A program made the position numbers and the translations under genes. DNA of 64,000 bases from IMG/VR virus record IMGVR_UViG_3300031417_000415; one strand, 5' to 3'. The stretch is from a virus. Lineage: Duplodnaviria > Heunggongvirae > Uroviricota > Caudoviricetes. Shown here piece after piece: positions 10,329 to 54,486 of this stretch. Below the pieces are notes generated by a model. It had not been told where the DNA came from. It was given only the letters and a program-made list of their open reading frames with translations, and ran no database searches. Position 1 is the first letter of the stretch; each line of letters starts with the position of its first letter.

Positions 10329-10452
10329 CGGCCTCGACGCCGTCCAGAACAGTGTCCGGCACCGGCCGGGCAGGGTGCTTCTCCGCGAATGCGTTGAAGG
10401 CGTCTCCTCAAGGTGGGGGGAAAATGAAGTGAACAGTCGAAAGGAATACATC

Positions 10453-10803
10453 ATGAGCAAGCCCATCCCAGCATCGGTCGAAGCCAACCGCGCCAAGTTC
10501 CGCGAGCAGGGCGTCGCCAACAAGGCCGCACGCGCGACCGCACACGCCGATCTGATCGCCTCGCAGAAGCTCGTCGGCCAGGGCAACCGCGAGAGCCGCG
10601 CCTCGAACCTGTCGGCCAACGTCGAGAAGTTCCGCGCGATCGGCGTCGAGAACGCACCGCTGAAGGCGCAGGCCAAGGCCGACCGCATCGCCGGCGCGAC
10701 CGCGCGCAACGAGCAGCTCAAGGCCGAGGCCGCAGAGCGCAAGTCGGCGCGCATGTCGGCACACGCCGAGCGCAACGCGTCGATGAAGAAGGTCGCCGCG
10801 TAA
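10453..10803 (+). CDS. small Ala/Lys/Arg-rich helical protein, paralog A (internal two-fold repeat)
   Basis: about 75% identical to the 29762..30109 product; same upstream GGAAAATGAAG element and same downstream hairpins. Confidence 0.5.
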   Translation: MSKPIPASVEANRAKFREQGVANKAARATAHADLIASQKLVGQGNRESRASNLSANVEKFRAIGVENAPLKAQAKADRIAGATARNEQLKAEAAERKSARMSAHAERNASMKKVAA

Positions 10804-10813
10804 GCGGGCCTCA

Positions 10814-10874
10814 GGAGCCGCCATAGCGCGGCTCCTGTCATCGCCGGGGCGCCGTCCGTTCATGGACGGCGTCC
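10814..10874 (+). terminator. double hairpin (GGAGCCGC..GCGGCTCC and GGCGCCGTCC..GGACGGCGTCC)
   Basis: two GC-rich inverted repeats directly after the stop codon. Confidence 0.4.
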
Positions 10875-11090
10875 TTTCCAAGTCCACGCCGGCGGCCGCC
10901 TCATCTCGGCCGTTCCCTTCTCACCTCCGGCGTGGGCTCTGGAAGGACGTCTACCCGCAGGGCCTGGCCCTGCGGGAGGCCCCTTGCTTTTTCCGGACCA
11001 CCGGAAAACCGGCACGGCATCCGGGACGATGCCGTCCATGCTCTCTCCGGCAGGAGAAGGCTCGAAGACGACCAGCGAAAGGGAAAAGAA

Positions 11091-11483
11091 ATGCTTCTCT
11101 ACCGTGCACAGTCCGTGCCTTCCGGCCTGAAGATCCGCAGTCCTCAGGACAACGCGCCCGCCACGCGCGCACGCGGGCGCTGGTTCACCGAGGACCTGGA
11201 GTCCGCGTACCGGCATGCGGAACGCATCGAGGGACCGCGGCGGATCGTCTGCATCGAGCTCGCCGACGACGTCGCGGAGACCTTCCGCGTCGCGACGACC
11301 CCGGTCACGCCCTGCGGCCTGGAGCCTATCCATCATTCGGCGGCGCCCATGAGCGACTTCGTGATTCCGCGCTTCTTCGCCGATCAGGCGGAGATCGTCG
11401 AGGCCGTGGCAGACGAGGACGCCACCAGGGTGGTCAGCGTCGACTTCGGATACGTCGCGTTCGCGGACCGTCAGGCCGCCTGA
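11091..11483 (+). CDS. hypothetical protein
   Basis: conserved GAAAGGGAAAAGAA-ATG motif. Confidence 0.45.
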   Translation: MLLYRAQSVPSGLKIRSPQDNAPATRARGRWFTEDLESAYRHAERIEGPRRIVCIELADDVAETFRVATTPVTPCGLEPIHHSAAPMSDFVIPRFFADQAEIVEAVADEDATRVVSVDFGYVAFADRQAA

Positions 11484-11578
11484 CCAGGACGCCGTCCGCA
11501 TGGGCGGCAGGAAGAGGCGGATTCCGCCTCGAGGAGACCGCGCGCAGAGGCGCGACGGCGACCGGAGAAGGGGACATC

Positions 11579-11953
11579 ATGTACGTTCCGGACGAGCAGA
11601 CGACGGCGATCTACCGCGACGCCATCGTGGCAATGGGATTCTCGCTCCAGCATGCGGCGCTGGTGCAGGTGGACGTGGCGCAGCGCCCCGGCCCGCCAAA
11701 GGCGGACATGCCGTCGTACCGCGTGACGACGGGCACCGAGGTGACGCGTCGCGGCGAGAAGGTGCGACGCGCGCTCATGCTGTGGTACGTCTACGACCAT
11801 GGCGGCGTGCTGGAGGAGGCACGCGACCGCGACGCGATCGCCGTGATGCTGACCGAGACCATGTCCTATCTGCCCGGTCCGGTCCGAAACACGCTTCCGC
11901 CGCCGCCCGCGTGGGCGCAGGCCGTGAAGACTCAGGCGCGTCGCGCCGCCTAG
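11579..11953 (+). CDS. hypothetical protein
   Basis: RBS GGAGAAGGGGA. Confidence 0.4.
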   Translation: MYVPDEQTTAIYRDAIVAMGFSLQHAALVQVDVAQRPGPPKADMPSYRVTTGTEVTRRGEKVRRALMLWYVYDHGGVLEEARDRDAIAVMLTETMSYLPGPVRNTLPPPPAWAQAVKTQARRAA

Positions 11954-12333
11954 AAAAGCGACGACAGTCGCCTGCATCCATCTCTGCGCTGAGCTTGGAG
12001 ATTCGGAAAGACCGTGAGAAGGGAAAACCAGATCAGGGTCGATCCTCGTCGAAGCAACGCGATGGAGGTGGTCATGAAAGATCGACTTCGTGCGCTGGCT
12101 GCGGCGGCCCAGACGGGTCTCTGGACAACAGAGCTCCGTCAGGGCCCTCCGTAGCTGCGGGCACTGTATCCACAAGGCAGGCGCATGCATGCACCTGCTG
12201 GCTTAACGGGTTCGTGCCCATAGGGCGCGGTACCGCTTCACAGACCGGGCGGGGGAGAGATCCCACGCCCGGTCGACCCCTTTAATCTATGGCTCCGGCC
12301 CGGAAAACCCGGCCGCTGCGACGGAGACCCAAC

Positions 12334-12999
12334 ATGGCCGGACACACACGCACTGACCTGCCGCGCGGCATGCGACGCCTCGTCATCCGCGACGAGACCT
12401 GGGGCTGGCGCTTCGGCCGCGAGGTCCCCATCGTCGCACCGGACGGACGACGCTTCAAGGTGGACCTCAGGGACCTCACGGGCCTGGACTGGAACGAGAT
12501 CGAGCGCGGCACCCACAAGCGGTACTTCTCGGCCGAGCCGCAGCGGGTCGTCTCCTACATCGACCGCACGCTGCTGGGCTATACCGACGTCGCGGGCTTT
12601 CCGCGCGGGGCGCTGCCCGGCAACTGGCAGCCTGCACTGCGCAGGGGCTGGATCGGCGTCCATGGACCACGAGGTCTCTGGCAGTGGAAGCCTCATCCCT
12701 GGGTAATCCATCTGCGCAGTCCCGAAGACGTCTCCACCATGACCCGCATCTACCATCTCCTCGACATGCCCGTGGACGAGTGGGCCGACATCAAGGCCGC
12801 CGCGATCGTCGCCGCAGGATCGACCGTCGACGCGGAGATTCGCCGCGGACGGCAGAAGGACATGCGTTCCAGCGTCGAGGGGTTCTTCGGATGGGAGGGA
12901 CCGGGTCTTCCCCGCCCCACCGAGAAGCAGGTGCTGGCCTATATCGGCCGGCTGATCGAGGGGAAGTCCGAGCGTGAGAAGACGAGAGAAGCCGCTTGA
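12334..12999 (+). CDS. hypothetical protein
   Basis: ORF with GGAGAC RBS; Trp-rich. Confidence 0.4.
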   Translation: MAGHTRTDLPRGMRRLVIRDETWGWRFGREVPIVAPDGRRFKVDLRDLTGLDWNEIERGTHKRYFSAEPQRVVSYIDRTLLGYTDVAGFPRGALPGNWQPALRRGWIGVHGPRGLWQWKPHPWVIHLRSPEDVSTMTRIYHLLDMPVDEWADIKAAAIVAAGSTVDAEIRRGRQKDMRSSVEGFFGWEGPGLPRPTEKQVLAYIGRLIEGKSEREKTREAA

Positions 13000-13180
13000 C
13001 ATCCTCCCCCAGCTGAAGCCTGGGGGATTCCTATAGCTAGCCGCTAAGGGCGTCCAACGGTCATGCGGCGAGCTTGCACTCGCCGCGTATTCCCATTGAA
13101 CCTTCCTGCTTCCTTCGGAGCCATTCGGCCCCGTTCTTCGCCGGTTGCACATCGTCCTTACGAACGATGCGTCCTACATC
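12990..13180 (-). ncRNA. candidate TnpB omega-RNA (overlaps tnpB 3' end and right-end hairpin)
   Basis: inference from IS200/IS605 architecture; right-end hairpin CCCCCAGCTGAAGCCTGGGGG lies just past the tnpB stop. Confidence 0.25.
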
Positions 13181-14390
13181 GACTCCACAGGCCTTCCGCC
13201 GTTCGGCGAGGATCGCAAGTCCTGCGACCCTTATGTTGATGGCGGCGTTGACGTCCCGGTCGTGGGCCACGCCGCACGACGGACACGTCCAGGCACGAAC
13301 GTCGAGAGCCATCTCCGCCATCCGATGCCCGCAGCCGGAGCATTTCTTGCTCGAAGGCTCCCACTGCGAGATCCTGACGATCTCGCGCCCATACCACGCC
13401 GCCTTGTACTCGAGCTGCCGCACGAACTCGCCCCAGGCCGCATCGGAGATGGACAAAGCCAGCTTCCGGTTCCTGACCATGGCACTCGCCCGTAGCGTCT
13501 CAATGCAGATCACCTGGTTCTCGGCGATCAGCTTCGACGACAGCTTGTGGAGGAAATCCAGCCGAACCCTGCGCACGCGCGCGTGGACACGCGCGACCTT
13601 CCTCCTGCTCTTCTCCCTGTTCCTGCCGCCCTTGGCCTTGCGGGCGTGATCACGTTGCGCTCTCGCCAGACGATCGAGCGACTTCCTCAGCGCTCTAGGT
13701 GCATCGATGCGACTGCCCCGATCGTCCATGACGTAGTTGGTGAGGCCAAGATCGACGCCGATGGCGTCACGGCCGCCTGCGGCGGCCGAGGTCTCGACCT
13801 CGACCTTCAGCGACACCCACCAGGTGCCGTCCGGCTCGAGACTGATGGTCATGGTGCTGGGGTCGCCCCAGAACACCTGCGTCCAGACGAGGTTCAGCGG
13901 CTGCTTCGACTTGGCCATCGTCAGGACCTTGCCGTCCCAGCCGAAGGCGGAGGCCGTGAACTCCGCCGACTGACGGAGACGACGCTTCATGAAGCTCGGA
14001 TAGCCGACCTTGCGGCCGGCCGGGGCCTTGCACCATCTGAAGAACTTCCTGAACGCCCCTTCGAGATGCCGCAGCTTCTGCTGCAGCGGCACGCAGCTGA
14101 CCTCGTTCAACCAGACGAACGCGGGGTCCTTCTTCCACTCGGTGAGCAGCGCGGACATGTCCGCATAGGACATGCCCTTCTTCTCTTCGCGCCAGCGGCG
14201 CGAGCGCTCCGCGATCATCCGATTCACGACCCAGCGTTCGCACCCGAAGGTGCGAACGAGCAGAGCCGCCTGCTCGGCAGTCGGGTAGTAGCGATAGCGA
14301 AGGCCACAGATCTGCTTCACGAAGATCGTGTTATCCTGTTTTCCTGAAAAGGAAAACGCATTCCTCCCCCGGCTGAAGCCTGGGGTATCC
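13000..14390 (-). mobile_element. IS200/IS605-family (IS1341-like) insertion sequence carrying only tnpB
   Basis: near-identical 27 bp subterminal hairpin-forming direct repeats TCCTCCCCCRGCTGAAGCCTGGGGKAT at 13002-13028 and 14362-14388 flank a TnpB gene; no TnpA. Confidence 0.6.
13061..14320 (-). CDS. tnpB: TnpB (OrfB_IS605) RNA-guided RuvC nuclease with zinc finger
   Basis: N-terminus MKQICGLRYRYYPTAEQAALLVRTFGCERWVVN, RuvC motifs, CSGCGHR...CPSCG zinc finger and NAAINI RuvC-III motif. Confidence 0.8.
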   Translation of the reverse strand: MKQICGLRYRYYPTAEQAALLVRTFGCERWVVNRMIAERSRRWREEKKGMSYADMSALLTEWKKDPAFVWLNEVSCVPLQQKLRHLEGAFRKFFRWCKAPAGRKVGYPSFMKRRLRQSAEFTASAFGWDGKVLTMAKSKQPLNLVWTQVFWGDPSTMTISLEPDGTWWVSLKVEVETSAAAGGRDAIGVDLGLTNYVMDDRGSRIDAPRALRKSLDRLARAQRDHARKAKGGRNREKSRRKVARVHARVRRVRLDFLHKLSSKLIAENQVICIETLRASAMVRNRKLALSISDAAWGEFVRQLEYKAAWYGREIVRISQWEPSSKKCSGCGHRMAEMALDVRAWTCPSCGVAHDRDVNAAINIRVAGLAILAERRKACGVDVGRIVRKDDVQPAKNGAEWLRRKQEGSMGIRGECKLAA

Positions 14391-14403
14391 TGCGGAGATT
14401 ATT

Positions 14404-14628
14404 ATGATCATCACGGGACCCGCAAACGACAACGCCGCGCAGACGGAACTCGAACGGGCGATCGGCGAGTCCCCGGGCCCGATGTCCGGCGATCCGTGGT
14501 GGCAGAGACGACGGCATCTGACGATGATGGAGTACGGCGCGATGCGCGCAGTCGACGGCGAGCCGCTCTGGCCGGCGGCCGCCGAGTATCTGCGCCACCA
14601 GAACGACATGGACAGGTTCCTGCCATAG
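14404..14628 (+). CDS. hypothetical protein (74 aa)
   Basis: start 15 nt past the IS left end, RBS GGAGA. Confidence 0.25.
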   Translation: MIITGPANDNAAQTELERAIGESPGPMSGDPWWQRRRHLTMMEYGAMRAVDGEPLWPAAAEYLRHQNDMDRFLP

Positions 14629-14690
14629 ACGCAGCCCCGTTTCTGGGCACCATCAGGAACGGGTTGAATCACGCCCGGATCGGGCTGTAA

Positions 14691-14702
14691 TTTTCAGGAT
14701 AG
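14691..14702 (+). promoter_or_regulatory. TTTTCAGGATAG copy of the recurring TTTCAGGATGA motif in an AT-rich stretch
   Basis: one of six or seven copies, all 50-200 nt upstream of start codons. Confidence 0.3.
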
Positions 14703-14761
14703 CTCTTGCGCGGTTAACCATTTCGAGGTATTACTTCGTTAACCCCAGCAGGAGTACCGTC

Positions 14762-14917
14762 ATGCACTACGCAGCCATCGATCGCTCCACCAGCACCCCG
14801 GCTCCGGCACCGCGGGAACTGCGCCGCTACTCGCCGCGCATGACGCTGGCCATCCTGACGGGCATCTCGCTCACGAGCTGGTCTCTCATCATCATGGGTA
14901 TCCGCTCGGTCATCTGA
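14762..14917 (+). CDS. small membrane peptide (51 aa)
   Basis: RBS AGCAGGAG; hydrophobic C-terminus; followed by a canonical terminator. Confidence 0.25.
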   Translation: MHYAAIDRSTSTPAPAPRELRRYSPRMTLAILTGISLTSWSLIIMGIRSVI

Positions 14918-14943
14918 TCGCCTGCTCAGGTTACATCCATCAA

Positions 14944-14964
14944 GGGCCCTCCGGGGCCCTTTTT
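14944..14964 (+). terminator. rho-independent terminator GGGCCCTCCGGGGCCCTTTTT
   Basis: GC hairpin plus T5 run. Confidence 0.5.
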
Positions 14965-15006
14965 CGTGAGCGAGGCCCCGAAAAGACGGAAACGCTCCAC
15001 GGACGA

Positions 15007-15018
15007 TTTTCAGGATGA
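15007..15018 (+). promoter_or_regulatory. TTTTCAGGATGA motif copy
   Basis: recurring motif. Confidence 0.3.
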
Positions 15019-15212
15019 CACGGACCGATATCAACGGGTAGCATTGCGGATGGCCTACGGAAGGGAAAAGACCCGGAATCCGTCGCCGCGATGCGGCAGG
15101 CCGTCGTCGTCGCCCACGATACGGGCACCCAGCACCGCGAGCATGTCCACGGGAACCGGTCCTCCGGTACGCCCGACCGGCTGCGCGCACGTCCCCTGAA
15201 CGGAGCATCGCC

Positions 15213-16100
15213 ATGCGTACACTCGAGGAGTATTCGGTCGTCCTGCCTCCGGTCGCCTGCGCCGACGTCGCCACCATGGCGGGCCAGGCGCTCATCGTGT
15301 GCCCCGACGACGACTGCGAGATCATGGTACGCGACTATCTGTTCACGCCGTTCGGCCTCACGGCCACCATACGCTTCGACCCGAACGGCGGCATCGCCGA
15401 CAAGAAGCTCTCGGCCGGAAGCTGGCACGATCTCCTCAACGCAGCGATCGAGACGCTCGCCAGGCGTGCCGGCATCGACCAGGAGGACGAGGAGGACTGG
15501 CCCCGCATGGCGACGCTGCTCTCCGAATGGCAGACGGTACTCGACGACGCCGCTATCATCGCCGACCTGGCGTCGGAGCGGATCTTCGTCATTCCGGGCC
15601 TCGAGGGGCACGCGGACCTGCTAGGGTCGATCCTCGACGGCACCGTCACCATGGCCGAGGCGCGCGCCGCGGCGGTGAACCCGGTGGACTTCGAGAACGA
15701 CCAGTCGCTTCGCCGCAGCGGCGTCGTGATCGACGACACGTGGTCGCAGGACGAGAACGAGATCGACGAGGCGATCGCCGCCGCCGCGCTCGAGGACGAG
15801 GTCGTCCTGTTCGGCGTCCTCGACGACGAGGACCAGTTCCTGCACACCATCGGACTGTCGGAACTCGCGTGGCCCGAGATCGTGGTTCGCAATCTCGACC
15901 CGCACCTCTCGCCCTTCCTGCTGCGCACCATCGTGGCGCTGCACGAGATGGCCGGCGTCGTTCCGACGGCGGGGCGTATCCCTGACGAGATCATGCCGGG
16001 CGGACTGCGGCTCCGCGCGCTGGACCGGGCGACGGTGCACGAGGCGTTTCCCCGCGCCGACGGGGGCACGGGCATCCTCGAGGTCGTCTTCCCGCTATAG
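15213..16100 (+). CDS. hypothetical protein with DUF4262-like C-terminal region
   Basis: motif FLHTIGLSELAWPEIVV resembles DUF4262. Confidence 0.4.
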   Translation: MRTLEEYSVVLPPVACADVATMAGQALIVCPDDDCEIMVRDYLFTPFGLTATIRFDPNGGIADKKLSAGSWHDLLNAAIETLARRAGIDQEDEEDWPRMATLLSEWQTVLDDAAIIADLASERIFVIPGLEGHADLLGSILDGTVTMAEARAAAVNPVDFENDQSLRRSGVVIDDTWSQDENEIDEAIAAAALEDEVVLFGVLDDEDQFLHTIGLSELAWPEIVVRNLDPHLSPFLLRTIVALHEMAGVVPTAGRIPDEIMPGGLRLRALDRATVHEAFPRADGGTGILEVVFPL

Positions 16101-16115
16101 CCCCTGACGACGAAC

Positions 16116-16142
16116 CCCGCGCCGGCTTTCGCCGACGCGGGG
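16116..16142. terminator. bidirectional hairpin CCCCGCG...CGCGGGG between convergent genes
   Basis: 7 bp GC stem between the 16100 stop (+) and the 16172 stop (-). Confidence 0.3.
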
Positions 16143-16171
16143 CCTCCCCGTCCCAGGGATGTCTTGCCGGA

Positions 16172-17290
16172 CTACCGGCCGACCATGGCCGCAACGGCGA
16201 ACGAGCGGGTCGCAGCCTGATGGGCGACGACGCGGTCGGCGTCCTGCATGGAAGCAGACTGCCTGACGCGGGGCGGAAGAGCAATAGCGCCTATCGTCGC
16301 CGTCCTCTGCGACGGACGCGATCCCGGCATTGCGTCGCGTACCATCTGCGCCGTGAGGGCCGCCTCCACCCAGACCTTCCGGTCCTCGACCCTGTCCCGA
16401 TCCGGAATCGGCGCCGTGTCGCTCCCGGGCACGTCGCGGAAGCGCAGGCGGAGCGAGGCCTCCGACATCATGCCAATGCGGGCAGCCTCGACGGCCACCG
16501 CCGCGTGCGCCTCGCGGCTGCGGTCGACGAGCAAGGGAGCGGGCTCCCAGGTCGTCTCTACCGGCCCACGGCGATGCGAGGCCGCGCGGACGACGGCCGA
16601 CGGCGAGAGCAGGCCCTGCCGGGCGGCGGCATGCTCGGCGCGCAGAGCGTCCTCCATCCACCTGCGCCGCTCCTCGCCGCGGTCCGGCATGGGCACGAAC
16701 GACGCGATGGGCATGTCGCGGAAGCGGTCCTGGATCACGCCCGTGCTCTGACGCTCCAGCATCTCGGATTCCGCCGCCACGCGCTCGTCGAGCCGGCGGC
16801 CGTCCTTCATGAAGTCCACGACGCGGCCCGTCACGTCGGCCCTGAGGGCGAAGGTGCGCTCGGGAAAGTTCGACGGGACGGTCTCGTCGGAGGCGAGCCG
16901 GCTGACGACCTGGCGGTCGATCGCGTCCAGGACCTGCGGACCGGCCTCGCCCTTGGGCGTCATGTAGTCGCCGTCACGCGACAGCGCCTCGAACATCTTG
17001 CGGTCGGTCCAGCCGTCGCGGCCGGGGCCCGGCAGCGGCACGAGGGCCTCGCTCTCGAAGCCGAAGGGCTGCCCCATGCTGCGCACCGCCTCGGCAGGCG
17101 TCATGTCCGCCGTGTGCCGCCTGAGTCTCATCATGATGGCGACCAGGCTGGCCTGATGCGGATCGAGACCGGCGGGCGCGGTCCACTCGGCATCGCTCTG
17201 GAGACGGGTCTCCGCGACCGGCTGCTCGGGCATCGCGGCCTGCTCCCTGGCGCCGGTGAGCCGTTCCTTCAGCCTTCCCACAAAACCCAT
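16172..17290 (-). CDS. hypothetical protein (372 aa), minus strand
   Basis: protein-like composition (E, D, K, M, F) against an R/G-rich spurious sense-strand ORF; divergent from the 17372 gene. Confidence 0.5.
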   Translation of the reverse strand: MGFVGRLKERLTGAREQAAMPEQPVAETRLQSDAEWTAPAGLDPHQASLVAIMMRLRRHTADMTPAEAVRSMGQPFGFESEALVPLPGPGRDGWTDRKMFEALSRDGDYMTPKGEAGPQVLDAIDRQVVSRLASDETVPSNFPERTFALRADVTGRVVDFMKDGRRLDERVAAESEMLERQSTGVIQDRFRDMPIASFVPMPDRGEERRRWMEDALRAEHAAARQGLLSPSAVVRAASHRRGPVETTWEPAPLLVDRSREAHAAVAVEAARIGMMSEASLRLRFRDVPGSDTAPIPDRDRVEDRKVWVEAALTAQMVRDAMPGSRPSQRTATIGAIALPPRVRQSASMQDADRVVAHQAATRSFAVAAMVGR

Positions 17291-17310
17291 GTCGCATGTC
17301 CCGATTGCAA

Positions 17311-17321
17311 TTTCAGGATGA
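17311..17321 (+). promoter_or_regulatory. TTTCAGGATGA motif in a divergent intergenic region
   Basis: recurring motif. Confidence 0.3.
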
Positions 17322-17371
17322 TTGTCGCATGCGCCCCGGCATCCATCAACCTCAATGACTCGGAAACGACG

Positions 17372-17674
17372 ATGAGCGTCGACCTCGTGCGCCTGCTGGC
17401 CTCCTCCCTGATCGCCCTCGTGGCGACGACCACGGTCGTATGGCTGCTGCGTCGGCCCTCCGGGCGACGCTCGATCATCCTGGGCTGCACCCTCTCGCTG
17501 GCCTGCATGTCGGTGCCTGCCATGGTAATGGCGTTCGGCCCCCTTCCCGAGACCGAGAGCGTGATCGGCCGTGCCTCGGCGATCATCCCGCCAGCAGAGC
17601 CGTACCGGGAGGTGCCACCCCCAAGCCGACGGGGAGACGTCATCCTGCTCAGGCCGGCATCTGTCTCACGGTAG
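17372..17674 (+). CDS. small membrane protein (100 aa)
   Basis: C-terminal part of a long spurious ORF; two TM helices; followed by a hairpin. Confidence 0.35.
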   Translation: MSVDLVRLLASSLIALVATTTVVWLLRRPSGRRSIILGCTLSLACMSVPAMVMAFGPLPETESVIGRASAIIPPAEPYREVPPPSRRGDVILLRPASVSR

Positions 17675-17675
17675 C

Positions 17676-17698
17676 GCTCGCGTCGATCTGACGCGAGC
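17676..17698 (+). terminator. 9 bp perfect hairpin GCTCGCGTC-GATCT-GACGCGAGC
   Basis: immediately after the stop at 17674. Confidence 0.35.
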
Positions 17699-17895
17699 AT
17701 GATCAGGAAGATGGGGCGGGTGGCTTCTCCGGCATCGCCTTCGATCCGGGGGGAGGTCTGGGGCTTACGTGCGCCATTCGGGGGAGAAGTCTGCGCCGTA
17801 GTTCGGGGTGCCGGAGAAGCCGTGCCCCGATTAGCACGACGGTCCATCCTATCAACCGTGATGCGACGAACCGAACGAAAAAGCAGGAGGAACAT

Positions 17896-18162
17896 GTGGT
17901 GCTCGATCCGAGAACGTTCCTGGGCCAGTGCGTGGCCGGCACCCAGGGGCCCGACGACGTCGACGACTGGATCGACCGGTGGCACGACGGCGACTCGAAG
18001 GTCGAACTGCACGAGTATCTCGGCATGACATGGGAGGAGTACGCCAACTTCGGGCTCGCCCACGACGCGCTCCCCCACATCGTCGAGATCAGACGCCTGG
18101 TGGAGAAGGGACGCGCCGACATGCTGCATGGCCTCGCGAAGATCACCGGACGGGCGAACTAG
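17896..18162 (+). CDS. hypothetical protein (GTG start)
   Basis: AGGAGG RBS 5 nt upstream of GTG. Confidence 0.35.
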   Translation: MVLDPRTFLGQCVAGTQGPDDVDDWIDRWHDGDSKVELHEYLGMTWEEYANFGLAHDALPHIVEIRRLVEKGRADMLHGLAKITGRAN

Positions 18163-36651: not shown

Positions 36652-39600
36652 TTATCCAGTGCAGCTGCAGATGACGTTCTTGGATCCCGTAGTGGACGGA
36701 TACCCGCCTCCGTAAGATCGCTGAAGACCGTAGATCGTCCCGTAGACGCCGTTCTTCGACACGTCGCACGTTCCCGGATTGGTGCTGTTCGGCGTGTTCG
36801 AGAGATACTCGGGCCCACCGGACGCAGCGCCGTTGCTGAGCGCGTAGTACACCCACGGAATGGTTGTCATCGAGGTCGGCATGCGGCTGCTGCCCCAGCT
36901 CGTCGCGGCGCCGGACGAGCCATATCCCGGACCGCCAGCGGTCCAGCTGCACGACAGCGTGCAGGCCTGCGAGATCGTCCAGGGCTGACCACGGTTGACG
37001 CACTCCTCACCCGCCACGCTGGCGCCGTCGGAACGACGGCACAGGTTCATGCCCTGCGTCTTCGTACCGTTGGTGCACGCACCGAACGCGCCGTAGAAGG
37101 CCTGATAGGTATAGTACGTGCAGGCCTGCGAACGCGTCCATGGCTGACCGCGCGCGACGCACTCGTCGCCGGCGACGCTCGCACCGTCGGAACGCTGGCA
37201 CAGGTTCATGCCCTGCGTCTGGGTGCCATTGCTCTGGCACTCGCCGAAACCACCGTAGTACGCCGTGTAGCCGCAACCGGCGACGTTCGAGTAGCCCTGC
37301 GCACCGGCAGGCTGGCCGCCGCCGCACAGCGATCCGTCGACACGGGCCCCGTCAGAACGCTGGCACCACACGTCGCGGTACTCGGTGCCGGTCGTGCAGA
37401 CCGCCTGCTGGCCCGACCAGCCGCCTGCCTGCCACGAGTAGCCGCAACCCGAGAAGTTGGCGGTCTGGACCGACTGGGAAGTCGGAATACCCCGGTTCGA
37501 GCACTCGGCGATCGCAACATCGGCACCATCCGACCGACGACAGCCAGTCGCGTACTGAGTCGCCGTGGTATTTCCCGAACAGCTACTGGCGTAGTTGTAG
37601 CCGCTCCAGCCAGATACGGAATAGCCGCACGCCGCGTAGTTGGTATAGTTCTCGGTCGTCGGCGGCTTGCCGCCTCCGCAATAGGCCTCTGCCACGCGGG
37701 CACCGTCGGACCGGACGCAGGCGACGTCGCGGCTGTACGACGCGGTGCCGCAGACAGCCTGCTGTGCAGGGTAGCCGTAGGCGACCCAGCTGTAGCCGCA
37801 GGCCGAATAGTCGGCGAAGGTCTGAGAAGCAGCTGGCCTCGCGCCGGCGTTGCAGTAGCCTTCGGCGACCGTGGCACCGTCGGAGCGCTGGCACCATACG
37901 GACCGGGCCTGGCTGACCGATCCGCAGCTCTGCGCGGTGGTGCCCCAGCCGTTGTACGCCCAGCCGTACGAGCAGGCCGAATAGTCGGTGACGCCTTCGC
38001 CATCGGGCGGCCGCGTGCCGGGATTGCAGTTGCCCGCATCCACCGTGGCGCCGTCCGAGCGGGTGCACCACACCGCACGATAGCGGGCCGAAGCGCCGCA
38101 GGCCGCGGCAGGAACGCCCCAGCCGCCGGTGCTCCAGGTATAGCCGCACCCGTCGTAGATGCCCGTGGTCTCGGAGCGCGACGGTACGGCGACGCCGCGA
38201 TCGGTGCAGTACTGGTCGCCGGCGAACACATTGTCGCCCGCGCGGTAGCAGGTCGCGGTCCGCGTCCGGGTGGCCGACGCCGAGCAGTGACTGTTGTAGT
38301 CGGTCCAGCCGCTGACCGAGAAATACCCCGGGCAGGCGTTGGTGTAGTTCGCCCCGGTCTGGGTCTCGGTCAGCAATATACCGCGCGCGGTGCACTCGCC
38401 CGCAGCGACGATCGTTCCGTCGGAGCGCTGGCACGAATAGGTACGGGTGCGATTCGCCGTGCCCGAGCAGGCGTTGTCCCACCCGCTCCACGCCGACGGG
38501 CTGACGCGCGAGTAGCCGCACTGGTCATACACGGCAGCAGTCTCGCTGTTGTTCAGCGTCGGACCAAATCCCTCACGGGTCGCATCAGGTCGGGCAGCGC
38601 ACTGCGCATTGTCAATCTTGCGATAACAGTTGCCGCCGCCGGCGTCAGACCAGTAGTTGGCAGAGCCAACGACACAGCGTTCCTCATGGCGAAAACAGCC
38701 TATGTCACGGGTACGCGTGGCATTGGTGGAGCAGTGGCTATTCCAGTCGGTGAACCCGGAAGCCGCATACCAGTACGGAGCACAGGAGCCGTAGTTGGCG
38801 ATCGTCTGAGACGTGGTCGGCTTGGCAGCGGTGCATTCCGCGTCGCCGACCGTCTGACCATCTGAACGCTGGCATGTCACCGAACGGGTCTGCACGGCCG
38901 CAGCCGAGCAGCCGCTGTCCGGGGAACCCCAGGCGCCGACGTTCCACGTGCGGGCGCACCCGGCGGTCTGATAGGACGCCTGCGAGGTATCGGGCTTGGC
39001 GGTGGCGCAGAAGCTGTCTGCCACCGTACGACCGTCGGAGCTCTGGCACGTTACGGGTCGGGTCTGGGTCGCGCTACCACACGTTGCCGACCATGCGCCG
39101 AACGACCCCACGGACCAGCCGTAGGTGCAGGTCGAATAATCGGTCGCCGCCTGCTGCGCGGCGGGACGGCTGCCGGCGGCACACGATCCGTCGGCGACCG
39201 TCTGGCCGTCAGATCGCAGACAGGTGACCGAACGGTTCTGCACGGTCGGCCCACATGCCGGAACGGGCGAGCCGAAGGCACCGGCATTCCAGGAATAGCC
39301 GCATCCGCTCGTCTCGTAGGTCGTTTTCGAGAGATCGGGCTTCGCACCCGAACAGGAGGCGTCGGCGACAGTACGGCCATCGGAGGAAAGACAGGTGACG
39401 CTGCGCGTGGAGGTCGCGCTGCCGCAGGTCGTCGACGGCGCGCTCCAGGCGGCCGGGTTCCAGGAGTAGGTGCAGGTCTGGTAGTCGGTGACGGCCTCGC
39501 TGACGGCGGGCTTCGTTCCCGCATCGCACGATCCGTCAGCGACGACGTCGCCGTTGGAGCGCACGCACTGCACGCTGCGCGACCTGGACGATGGGCCGCA

Positions 39601-40503
39601 CGCAGGCGCGACGGCGCCCCAGGCCTGCTCCTTCCAGGAATAGCTGCACTGGCCGTACTGGTCGCCGGTCTCGCTGACGGCCGGCTTGGCGCCAGCTGCG
39701 CCGCACATGGCATCAGCGACCTCGTCACCGTTAGAACGGAGGCAGACGACCTCGCGGGTACGGGTCGCTCCCGTCTGGCACGACGACGACCACGGGGTCC
39801 ACGCCTTCTCCTTCCAGGAGTAGCCGCACTGGCCGTAGCGATCCTCGGTCTGCGATGCCGCAGGCTTCTTGCCCGAAGCCGAGCACTCGGCATCCGTGAC
39901 CTTCTCGCCGTTCGACCGCTCGCACCACACGTTGCGGGTCGAGGTCGCGGCAGTCTGGCACTCGCCCGAGAACGCCGACCATACGTCGTTCTTCCACTCG
40001 TACGAGCAGGTGCGCAGGTCGCGGACCTCGCGGCTCGTATCTGGGGCAGGAGCCGGGCACTGGTCGTTGGGGACCGTCTTGCCGTCGCCGCGCAGGCAGG
40101 TCAGCTCGCGGGTCTCGACCACCTGGCCGCAGCCGGAGGCATCGGTCCACTCGCCGGGCTGCCAGGTGTAGTCGCAGCCCTGGATGTCGTAGCACGACTG
40201 GTTGTCGGCAGGACGGTTCGGGCCGCAGTTGACCTCCGGAGAACCATGCTTGCCGTTCATCATGCACTGGACGGCGCGGGTCTGCTGACCGGCGCCGCAG
40301 CTGTTCGAGCACTGGCTCCATGCATCCGGGATCCACGCGTAGGTGCGGGTCTTCGGATCGAGCGAGCGGCGCATCACGACGACGCCCGAGTCCGCCTGCG
40401 CATACGCCGCGGTGGACTGCAGCATGCCAATTGCGATGAGTGACGCTGCTGCATACGCGGCAAGACGCATAGTTCGGACTCCCGATGGATTTGGGAGAAG
40501 CAT
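36652..40503 (-). CDS. giant secreted protein (1283 aa) of about 20 tandem thrombospondin-type-1-like repeats
   Basis: signal peptide; repeated unit W..WS.TCGSATQTR.VTC..SDG.TVAD..C...KP; the long sense-strand ORF is R/A/G-rich junk. Confidence 0.55.
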   Translation of the reverse strand: MLLPNPSGVRTMRLAAYAAASLIAIGMLQSTAAYAQADSGVVVMRRSLDPKTRTYAWIPDAWSQCSNSCGAGQQTRAVQCMMNGKHGSPEVNCGPNRPADNQSCYDIQGCDYTWQPGEWTDASGCGQVVETRELTCLRGDGKTVPNDQCPAPAPDTSREVRDLRTCSYEWKNDVWSAFSGECQTAATSTRNVWCERSNGEKVTDAECSASGKKPAASQTEDRYGQCGYSWKEKAWTPWSSSCQTGATRTREVVCLRSNGDEVADAMCGAAGAKPAVSETGDQYGQCSYSWKEQAWGAVAPACGPSSRSRSVQCVRSNGDVVADGSCDAGTKPAVSEAVTDYQTCTYSWNPAAWSAPSTTCGSATSTRSVTCLSSDGRTVADASCSGAKPDLSKTTYETSGCGYSWNAGAFGSPVPACGPTVQNRSVTCLRSDGQTVADGSCAAGSRPAAQQAATDYSTCTYGWSVGSFGAWSATCGSATQTRPVTCQSSDGRTVADSFCATAKPDTSQASYQTAGCARTWNVGAWGSPDSGCSAAAVQTRSVTCQRSDGQTVGDAECTAAKPTTSQTIANYGSCAPYWYAASGFTDWNSHCSTNATRTRDIGCFRHEERCVVGSANYWSDAGGGNCYRKIDNAQCAARPDATREGFGPTLNNSETAAVYDQCGYSRVSPSAWSGWDNACSGTANRTRTYSCQRSDGTIVAAGECTARGILLTETQTGANYTNACPGYFSVSGWTDYNSHCSASATRTRTATCYRAGDNVFAGDQYCTDRGVAVPSRSETTGIYDGCGYTWSTGGWGVPAAACGASARYRAVWCTRSDGATVDAGNCNPGTRPPDGEGVTDYSACSYGWAYNGWGTTAQSCGSVSQARSVWCQRSDGATVAEGYCNAGARPAASQTFADYSACGYSWVAYGYPAQQAVCGTASYSRDVACVRSDGARVAEAYCGGGKPPTTENYTNYAACGYSVSGWSGYNYASSCSGNTTATQYATGCRRSDGADVAIAECSNRGIPTSQSVQTANFSGCGYSWQAGGWSGQQAVCTTGTEYRDVWCQRSDGARVDGSLCGGGQPAGAQGYSNVAGCGYTAYYGGFGECQSNGTQTQGMNLCQRSDGASVAGDECVARGQPWTRSQACTYYTYQAFYGAFGACTNGTKTQGMNLCRRSDGASVAGEECVNRGQPWTISQACTLSCSWTAGGPGYGSSGAATSWGSSRMPTSMTTIPWVYYALSNGAASGGPEYLSNTPNSTNPGTCDVSKNGVYGTIYGLQRSYGGGYPSTTGSKNVICSCTG

Positions 40504-53448: not shown

Positions 53449-54486
53449 ATGTCAGCCCACGGCTCCAAGAAGGCGCTGTTCGCAGCCCTCGCCGCGAATG
53501 CGGGGATAGCCGTCGCCAAGTTCGGTGGCGCGGCATACACCGGCTCGTCAGCTATGATGTCGGAAGGCGTCCATAGCCTGGTCGACACCGGCAACCAGAT
53601 CCTTCTGCTGTTCGGGATGAAGGACTCGAGCCGCCAGCCCGACGCGTCACACCCGTTCGGCTACGGCCTACGCCTCTACTTCTGGGGGTTCGTAGTCGCG
53701 ATGATGGTATTCGCGCTTGGCTCGCTCGTCGCCATCACTGAAGGCTACGAGAAGGTTCGCGAGCCGCACGAGATCCACAACGCCGTCGTGAACTACATCA
53801 TCCTGGCCTTCGCAATCGTACTCGAAGGAGCCTCACTGCGCGTCGCGATGCGTCAGGTCGCCGTACAGGCGAAGAAGCGCGGAATGACCATGCTGCGCAC
53901 CATCCAGACTCACCGGGACCCGACAATCTTCGCTGTGATCTTCGAGGAGACCGCAGCACTCGCAGGCCTGATCATCGCCATGGTCGGCCTCGCCGCGTCG
54001 CAGATCTTCGCAATGCCCGTCATCGACGGCTACACATCGATCGGCATCGGCGTCGTGCTGGCAATCACCTCGTTCAGTCTCGCGCGCAAGTGCTACAGCC
54101 TGATGACCGGCCAGGCTGCGGATCCCGAGCTGTCGGACCGGCTATGGGACATCCTGGAAGGCATCAAGCTCGTCAAGGAGGTCAACGAGATCCGGACGAT
54201 GCACTTCGGCCCCGACGAGGTCACGATGCTCGCTTCGGTCGACTACCACGACGAGTACAACGGCAAGCCGATCACGAGCCGTACGCTTGAAAGCATCACC
54301 TCGGATGTCAGCGAAACCATGCGCGAGGAGTTTCCTGCCACGAAGCTGCGCATCTACATCGAGCCGCAGTCGAACACCCGCCACCTCGAGGAGCTCGAGG
54401 AAATGGGCGAGGAAGCCGACGCGCTCTACACCGAGGAGGAGCTGGCGGCGGAGGCCGCCGAGGCGGAAGGCCGTTCGGCTGCGTGA
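53449..54486 (+). CDS. cation diffusion facilitator (CDF) family metal efflux transporter
   Basis: conserved GGAAGGAAAAAAG-ATG motif; HSLVDTGN and HPFGYGL signatures, six TM helices, acidic C-terminal domain. Confidence 0.7.
   Translation: MSAHGSKKALFAALAANAGIAVAKFGGAAYTGSSAMMSEGVHSLVDTGNQILLLFGMKDSSRQPDASHPFGYGLRLYFWGFVVAMMVFALGSLVAITEGYEKVREPHEIHNAVVNYIILAFAIVLEGASLRVAMRQVAVQAKKRGMTMLRTIQTHRDPTIFAVIFEETAALAGLIIAMVGLAASQIFAMPVIDGYTSIGIGVVLAITSFSLARKCYSLMTGQAADPELSDRLWDILEGIKLVKEVNEIRTMHFGPDEVTMLASVDYHDEYNGKPITSRTLESITSDVSETMREEFPATKLRIYIEPQSNTRHLEELEEMGEEADALYTEEELAAEAAEAEGRSAA

Follow-up and report, generated by a model that had tools for sequence, protein, structure and literature searches.

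The 64,000-nucleotide stretch of metagenomic DNA analyzed here (IMG/VR virus record IMGVR_UViG_3300031417_000415, hereafter the window) carries on its minus strand a 1408-bp insertion sequence (IS) at positions 12996-14403. We put the probability at about 85% that this is a non-autonomous member of the IS200/IS605 family of the IS1341 type, made up of tnpB and an omega-RNA with no tnpA, and inserted as single-stranded DNA 3' of a minus-strand TCAT. The element, apparently intact, is an ordinary member of a very common and already known TnpB-only kind, copies of which are among the most abundant genes in prokaryotes. The original prediction for this DNA, made from the sequence alone, had proposed a TnpB-only, IS1341-like IS200/IS605 element with matched subterminal hairpins, and the Pfam matches, the repeats, and the absence of a TnpA from the 64 kb bear this out, whereas the placement of the ends and the reading of the surroundings have to be revised.

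The extent of the element is set by alignment with element-free alleles. Both the interval 12996-14403 and an unoccupied sequence in which ...GCCGC runs directly into ATGATC... had been predicted from aligned lineage ends before any empty contig was found, and this is exactly the junction in all four element-free contigs (L124, L125, L126, and L127, reading ...GAGAGAAGCCGC followed directly by ATGATCGTC...), which were reached through a protein search with homologues of the upstream 221-amino acid protein; there were no relatives of the window's flank proteins among the first 123 loci collected. Identity to the window on both sides of the junction is 94-98.5% for L124-L126 and ~85% for L127, and two of the empty contigs come from ERZ27247402 and ERZ27247405, accession numbers near that of the window sample, ERZ27247433. 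The comparison reveals neither a target-site duplication nor terminal inverted repeats. Conservation among 11 independent insertions of the window lineage (L041, L042/L043, and L044 from a metagenome scan, L121-L123 and L311-L314 from protein look-ups, and the window itself) also begins and ends at 12996 and 14403. Read in tnpB orientation, the close copies all begin directly after TCAT (TTAT in one, TCAT adjoining the left end [LE] in 10/11) and end in ...GGAGGA(N)GTCAA, beyond which the flanks are unrelated among all of them. Aligned copy ends and empty sites together therefore define an element of 1408 bp without target duplication, and the comparison with IS-free relatives proposed in the original prediction yields TCAT as the transposon-adjacent motif (TAM). 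The same empty sites displace the ends first suggested, which lay 3 nt after a stop at 12999 and 15 nt before a start at 14404, and they show that the hairpin repeats are subterminal rather than terminal, the element continuing 6 nt past one repeat and 15 nt past the other. The G+C content of the IS is 0.63 versus 0.67 in the flanks, with no composition break at the element, and BLAST of the element against phage and plasmid sequences returned only distant tnpB fragments (66-73% identity).

The ends are organized as expected of this family. Two near-identical 27-nt direct repeats forming hairpins, already recognized in the original prediction, lie at 13002-13028 and 14362-14388; 25 of their 27 bases agree, no third match occurs anywhere in the 64 kb, and the expectation from shuffled sequence is 0. 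When the tnpB-sense strand is folded as DNA, the copy in the right end (RE) gives a 7-8-bp stem and the LE copy an imperfect 4+3-bp stem with one mismatch. Both ends thus carry subterminal imperfect palindromes (IPL on the left, IPR on the right) in direct orientation on one strand, and the insertion lies 3' of a fixed tetranucleotide abutting the LE. The cleavage sites are asymmetric, the left one (CL) being 18 nt from IPL and the right one (CR) 10 nt from IPR, and each is complementary to a 4-nt DNA guide, GATA with TCAT for the left guide (GL) and GAAT with TCAA for the right guide (GR), the register of hairpin foot and guide being taken from LE-RE homology. The left guide is GATA in the window copy and GAAA in L042 and L044. 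The REs of relatives fall into three classes in which guide and site covary by Watson-Crick pairing (GAAT/TCAA, GAAG/TCAC, and CAAG/TGAC, e.g. L064, L135, L131, and L218), a covariation that covers two pairing positions; in IS608, base 4 of the guide pairs with C-1. The IPR stem is maintained via many compensatory changes across the family, the stem of a second LE stem-loop (14338-14357) is kept in relatives, and ATCTCCGCAGGA is kept in 5 of the 11 lineage members and partly eroded in the rest. In the L311 copy (86% TnpB identity; L311:2929-2965), the 5' arm of the LE hairpin has been lost while TCAT and the remaining LE are kept, and this copy is probably immobilized. An exact-hairpin search of IMG/VR returned one unrelated contig, L001, of G+C content far below that of the window, which gave no empty site; there, the same 21-nt RE hairpin (CCCCCAGGCTTCAGCCGGGGG; L001:12462-12482) follows the 3' end of a tnpB-like open reading frame (ORF), indicating that this hairpin type is common to different lineages.

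This arrangement closely resembles that of IS608 from Helicobacter pylori (PMC3201880, PMC5934647): there, CL is external to the element, at 19 nt 5' of IPL, CR (TCAA) is internal, at 10 nt 3' of IPR, and the guides GL (AAAG) and GR (GAAT) stand 5' of the hairpin foot, with G1 pairing with C-3 and G2 with C-4; an extra stem-loop is found 3' of IPL (PMC5934647). The window element shares with IS608 the one-strand subterminal imperfect palindromes, a CL outside the element (~19 nt in IS608, 18 nt here), a CR TCAA at 10 nt, an identical right guide GAAT, left guide-target pairing by the same rule, an additional stem-loop on the 3' side of the left hairpin, the absence of a duplication, and a scarless donor joint. 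On the other hand, IS608 has tnpA, targets TTAC, and uses AAAG as its GL, whereas the window element is without tnpA, targets TCAT, and uses GATA.

Between the ends lies, as originally claimed, a minus-strand gene for a TnpB with a zinc finger. The 419-amino acid product of the ORF at 13061-14320 matches the Pfam models HTH_OrfB_IS605, OrfB_IS605, and Cas12f1-like_TNB (PF12323, PF01385, and PF07282), all above their cut-offs, and among NCBIfam models it scores 308 bits with guided_TnpB (cut-off 100), 344 bits with IS200_TnpB (below the exception cut-off of 425), and 180 bits with IS607_TnpB. It aligns over its full length (E = 4e-77) to the TnpB chains 8bf8/8ex9/8exa and 8h1j, which the alignment tool labels only "RNA-guided DNA endonuclease TnpB" and which we take to be ISDra2 TnpB, and its GVDLG, CIETL, and HDRD motifs are in register with these chains, pointing to D190, E274, and D356 as the RuvC triad. 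The zinc finger consists of two CxxC pairs, C327/C330 and C346/C349. With an HTH/WED-REC N-terminal part, a RuvC D-E-D, and a zinc finger, and with neither frameshift nor stop codon and the catalytic and zinc residues intact, the full-length gene is not a pseudogene fragment, a possibility that had been raised at the outset.

The 3' part of the element is consistent with an omega-RNA, a suggestion based on position, predicted structure, and analogy. The last 205 nt of the element have a minimum free energy of -97.4 kcal/mol versus -72.6 for shuffles (z = -5.8). A 62-pair consensus is 94% paired in seven lineage sequences, with compensatory changes at 14 pairs; 0/500 shuffles equal it, and sliding the partners as a control drops consensus pairing to 31-46%, with the caveat that the consensus structure was predicted from the same sequences used to score the pairing. 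The anchors GCCTGTGGAG and GAAGCAGGAA persist across 21 more distant relatives, as does GGAATCCC-hairpin-GGGAGGATGTCAA, in which the hairpin stems vary by compensation. In codons 366-417 of tnpB, amino acid identity is low (0.65-0.76) while synonymous-codon identity is the highest of the gene (0.70-0.82), which fits a constraint acting at the RNA level. The C-terminal ~45-50 codons of tnpB (window 13061-13220, codons ~366-419) overlap the predicted omega-RNA, and the TnpB tail they encode may be held open by RNA constraints and not by protein function. The original prediction of a structured omega-RNA-like region across the tnpB 3' end and the RE, with its guide taken from the RE flank, thus gains support from fold and covariation. 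By its position in the known TnpB model (PMC10055086), the putative guide is the 20 nt flanking the RE. TCAT followed by this 20-nt sequence is found without mismatch in the empty alleles L124-L126, and the near match within the window is at the occupied site alone, with TCAA in place of TCAT, which is the arrangement expected of a nuclease cutting vacated or naive alleles and sparing its own copy (PMC10055086).

Comparison with ISDra2 from Deinococcus radiodurans, if the aligned chains are indeed its TnpB, extends from the full-length protein alignment with its D/E/D and zinc-finger motifs to the structured RNA across the tnpB 3' end and RE and the guide from the RE flank, both predicted for the window element. 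The two differ in that the window ORF runs ~45 codons further into the RNA scaffold, in that the window scaffold has lineage-specific insertions, and in the TAM, TCAT here versus TTGAT for ISDra2.

Elements of the IS1341/ISGst type, carrying TnpB or IscB without tnpA, are mobilized in trans by a TnpA recognizing shared ends, their TAM and insertion target coincide, and it is the donor joint that the nuclease attacks (Meers et al., PMC10055086). The window element resembles them in being without tnpA and in its TAM, TCAT, to be compared with the described TAM of ISGst5, TTCAT, although the latter belongs to an IscB element and the window element carries TnpB (PMC10055086). In line with this type, no Y1 (HUH) TnpA was found in the element or the 64-kb window by motif scan, tblastn with four TnpA sequences, or Pfam check, nor within 4 kb of seven lineage copies (L041-L044 and L121-L123, to which this search was confined, the flanks of L311-L314 lying outside it); a weak TnpA-like tblastn match at 54127-54363 was rejected as a cation-efflux protein. 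In locus L167, a Y1 transposase gene (Pfam Y1_Tnp, E = 3e-39) lies directly behind the same LE type and TCAT, constituting an autonomous relative, and TnpA genes neighbor more distant TnpB relatives. Because the element and window are without TnpA while such relatives exist, the element is best read as non-autonomous and mobilized in trans.

Following the IS608 and TnpB models, a Y1 (HUH) TnpA supplied from elsewhere would recognize both subterminal hairpins and would locate the cleavage sites through the 4-nt DNA guides, GATA with TCAT and GAAT with TCAA. It would then excise the tnpB-sense strand, the donor being resealed without a scar. TnpB with an omega-RNA carrying the guide GCGGCUUCUCUCGUCUUCUC would cut the resealed or naive allele, in which TCAT is directly followed by GCGGCTTCTC..., and recombination of the cut allele with an occupied copy would restore the element, the occupied site being spared by having TCAA where TCAT is needed.

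Several observations weigh against the assignment to a mobile, omega-RNA-guided element. The missing TnpA makes mobility dependent on an unseen partner, although lack of its own TnpA is the usual state for IS1341-type tnpB elements (PMC10055086). No promoter for tnpB, and none directed outward, emerged from a simple sigma-70 scan, and the Rfam models searched against 12000-15500 (E ≤ 1) yielded nothing beyond sub-threshold chance matches, with no intron or omega-RNA family. The exact element is known as one copy only, and the empty alleles fall short of full identity to the window flanks (94-98%), which leaves room for an older insertion.

These points could also be accommodated if the element were an immobile relic, whose ends and tnpB look intact while no cognate TnpA is left or the imperfect LE hairpin goes unrecognized, and which persists because it is harmless. 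The absence of TnpA from the window and from the neighborhood of the seven lineage copies searched, the single known copy, the mismatched LE hairpin together with the lost 5' arm in L311, and the origin of the empty alleles from non-identical strains would all fit. We nevertheless consider this unlikely, since tnpB has no frameshift or stop and retains its catalytic and zinc residues, the RNA structure is maintained by compensatory changes, and lineage copies at 69-93% identity occupy many different sites, showing that the lineage has been moving; imperfect palindromes, moreover, are described as normal in the IS200/IS605 family (PMC3201880). It is far less probable still that the element is a domesticated, TldR-like TnpB whose guide RNA regulates neighboring genes: its antisense position inside an operon-like gene pair and the complementarity of the guide to the 3' end of the upstream gene would suit such a role, whereas the RuvC triad D190/E274/D356 is present, where a nuclease-dead protein would have lost catalytic residues, both transposon ends, the TAM, and the transposon-encoded motif (TEM) are in place, the locus is polymorphic for presence and absence, and close copies lie in unrelated gene contexts. 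Practically no weight remains for an IS607-type element with a serine-recombinase TnpA, or for hairpins that belong to the host as repeats or terminators and have nothing to do with the element, since the weak IS607_TnpB match (180 bits) and the G+C-rich hairpin stems are outweighed by the far higher IS200_TnpB score (344 bits), by the absence of any recombinase from the element, by hairpins that are absent from the empty sites, occur in 64 kb only at the two element ends, accompany tnpB in every relative, and follow the IS608 spacing and guide rules, and by the Y1 TnpA found with the same LE type in L167.

The element described here lies between two host genes. Prior to insertion, these genes overlapped in ATGA, the stop codon of the 221-amino acid gene and the start codon of the 74-amino acid gene, and gene callers place a 4-nt overlap between them in all four empty contigs. 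On the plus strand, CL reads ATGA, the start codon of the downstream gene plus one base, and the element end TCAA reads TTGA, so that the TGA stop of the upstream gene (12997-12999) is now supplied by the element, GCT TGA replacing GCA TGA with the last sense codon changing from GCA to GCT, both Ala. The rebuilt TGA, the synonymous change, and the retained ATG leave both host proteins unchanged. The three closest homologues of the upstream protein (P0121-P0123) also end in a C-terminal REAA, as the window protein does. Both frames show the coding signature GC1 > GC2 << GC3, where GC1, GC2, and GC3 denote G+C content by codon position (0.68/0.52/0.82 upstream and 0.66/0.50/0.85 downstream), and the 18 nt upstream of the second gene are now derived from the LE. 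Because the first bases of the LE are the complement of GGAGATTATT, the plus strand has GGAG (14394-14397) 6 nt before the ATG at 14404, which by sequence resembles a Shine-Dalgarno (SD) motif for the retained start codon. As a point against the reading given here, several close relatives show an eroded form of this GGAG (GAGA, GATA, and AAGG) and many other lineages are without it, although it is kept in deeper branches of the window lineage. The element had been pictured as wedged between a stop codon and the ribosome-binding site of the next gene; instead, the TGA and the GGAG both belong to the element, and the LE abuts the ATG. Coordinates are collected in Table 1.

Table 1. Positions of the element, its parts, and the adjoining host genes in the window
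Feature	Position	Strand	Sequence or size	Basis or remark
Whole IS	12996..14403	-		LE is the high-coordinate side, RE the low-coordinate side
TAM / left cleavage site CL	14404..14407	-	5'-TCAT-3'	Flank, outside the element
LE terminal 18 nt	14386..14403	-	AATAATCTCCGCAGGATA	Read from sequence
Left DNA guide GL (inferred)	14389-14386	-	GATA	Last 4 nt of the LE terminal 18 nt
LE imperfect palindrome IPL	14366..14385	-	CCCCAGGCTTCAGCCGGGGG	DNA fold; one copy of the 27-nt repeat
Second LE stem-loop	14338..14357	-	GTTTTCC-TTTTCA-GGAAAAC	Fold z = -2.9; between IPL and the tnpB start
tnpB	13061..14320	-	419 amino acids, GTG start	ORF; same 419-amino acid product from gene callers
Predicted omega-RNA scaffold	12996..13191	-	~196 nt	5' bound provisional; extends over the RE and the 3'-terminal ~130 nt of tnpB
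Right DNA guide GR (inferred)	13030-13027	-	GAAT	Directly before IPR
RE palindrome IPR	13006..13026	-	CCCCCAG-GCTTCAG-CTGGGGG	DNA fold
Right cleavage site CR / TEM	12996..12999	-	TCAA	Terminal 4 nt of the element, whose end lies 10 nt 3' of the IPR foot
Putative omega-RNA guide (RE-flanking 20 nt)	12976..12995	-	GCGGCTTCTCTCGTCTTCTC	Position in the known TnpB model (PMC10055086)
Upstream host gene	12334..12999	+	221 amino acids as called	ORF open from 12289; 13 homologue clusters
Downstream host gene	14404..14628	+	74 amino acids, ATG retained	Called in all 4 empty contigs

The association with start codons extends beyond the window. The LE pattern CAGGAWAC-hairpin-GGAGGAATGCG occurs at no fewer than 120 loci of the genome collection and on 63 IMG/VR contigs (loci L128-L310), and the matches listed include Chloroflexota, Paracoccaceae, Nitrospirota, Paenibacillus, haloarchaea, Methanosarcina, Nitrososphaeria, and Woesearchaeota. 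Among these listed matches, 115 of 162 unique LEs have TCAT at a distance of 10-12 nt ahead of CAGGAWAC, and the base preceding TCAT is T in 80/113. At 50% of 113 independent insertions, an ORF of 100 codons or more begins at the ATG that complements the TAM, compared with 17% of control sites, for which the remaining ATGA or ATGAA sites of these flanks served (Fisher p ~2e-15). The excess is similar in the genome and viral sets and across hairpin sub-families. A regular expression built from the RE motif of the window lineage matched only 4/115 when applied to the wider clade, because other lineages end in TGAC. On one viral contig, two LE motifs in the same orientation lie 1262 nt apart (L301:5142-5177 and 6404-6439) and may represent tandem or nested elements.

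Within the window lineage (n = 11), two insertions are true ATGA overlaps with a stop supplied by the RE, namely the window and L311, in which CTA is changed synonymously to CTT. Five more (L041, L042, L044, L122, and L313) directly adjoin an ATG at which a frame with a coding signature begins, the in-frame extension upstream of it being only short; in L313, the element lies between the native GGAG and the ATG of a Flp pilin gene. The ATG at L123 may be an internal Met, and L121, L312, and L314 are intergenic or ambiguous. Stop-to-stop open frames are uninformative at 66% GC, and GC3 alone fails to distinguish a gene from its antisense shadow frame; the criterion GC1 > GC2 was therefore added, and L314 was reclassified as intergenic. 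In L123 (5328-5348) and L312 (4304-4324), the upstream host gene, as called, runs on into the RE out of frame with the usual stop and terminates at the TGA of the hairpin loop (GGCTGAAGCC), so the RE offers stops in more than one frame.

How this excess arose can be read in two ways. It could reflect survivorship, gene-breaking insertions having been lost. Alternatively, and as a tentative proposal that we rate below even odds, the clade targeting (T)TCAT would be adapted, and not merely filtered by selection, to sit antisense before start codons or in ATGA overlaps. This reading draws on a TAM that complements ATG plus A, on an RE (TCAA or TCAC) that re-creates an in-frame TGA, and on the outward SD motif in the LE of the window lineage; of the three RE classes, only GAAT/TCAA and GAAG/TCAC give TGA on the opposite strand. 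The erosion or absence of GGAG in relatives leaves such an adaptation possible, not established. If it is true, the element would enter tightly packed operons at almost no cost in protein sequence. Another route within the IS605 family to less harm for the interrupted gene is that of IStrons, in which an IS605-type element is joined with a group I intron and which splice themselves out of mRNA; by the Rfam scan, the window element has no intron, and harm is avoided by a rebuilt stop codon and an SD-like motif instead. In the literature searched, we found nothing relevant that links IS605 elements with start codons or with translational coupling, and no description of the ATGA-overlap position or of the start-codon excess of this clade; as evidence of novelty, this is weak.

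Regarding the wider context, the flanks had been called phage-like, an impression that the data do not support. The window is part of a 1.06-Mb metagenomic contig; megablast of positions 1-25000 gave no match among 50,697 phage records, and next to nothing in PHROG matches the eight genes surrounding the element. Of the relatives of the upstream gene, only one carries a name, and it comes from Sphingomonas sp. 3-13AW. A reasonable guess is that the window derives from a sphingomonad chromosome or large replicon. There are no tRNA genes in the 64 kb. Elsewhere in the window, a 1283-amino acid ORF (36652-40503, minus strand) has eight Pfam TSP1_ADAMTS (thrombospondin type 1) repeats (E = 2e-55), unusual on a bacterial contig, and a 962-amino acid ORF (5457-8345, plus strand) ending in a YadA-like membrane anchor is probably a trimeric autotransporter adhesin. 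Runs of short genes without Pfam or PHROG match, mostly on one strand, occupy window positions 9000-18000 and also loci L122, L123, and L311-L313, and several contigs with close element copies (245-587 kb, JGI 3300055083) are, like the window, large and rich in ORFan genes.

Together, these data make the locus a fully resolved natural example of its kind, with a TAM (TCAT), a TEM (TCAA), DNA guides, a predicted omega-RNA scaffold, a 20-nt guide, and a matching empty allele, so that its TnpB can be tested as a compact nuclease with a TCAT TAM without further guesswork. From an evolutionary point of view, the insertion in an ATGA overlap and the 50% versus 17% excess suggest a link between target-motif choice in this clade and the start sites of translation. 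If the adaptation is real, it would explain the persistence of such elements in gene-dense genomes and operons, and it would also bear on annotation, since the stop codons and ribosome-binding sites of neighboring genes may belong to the element.

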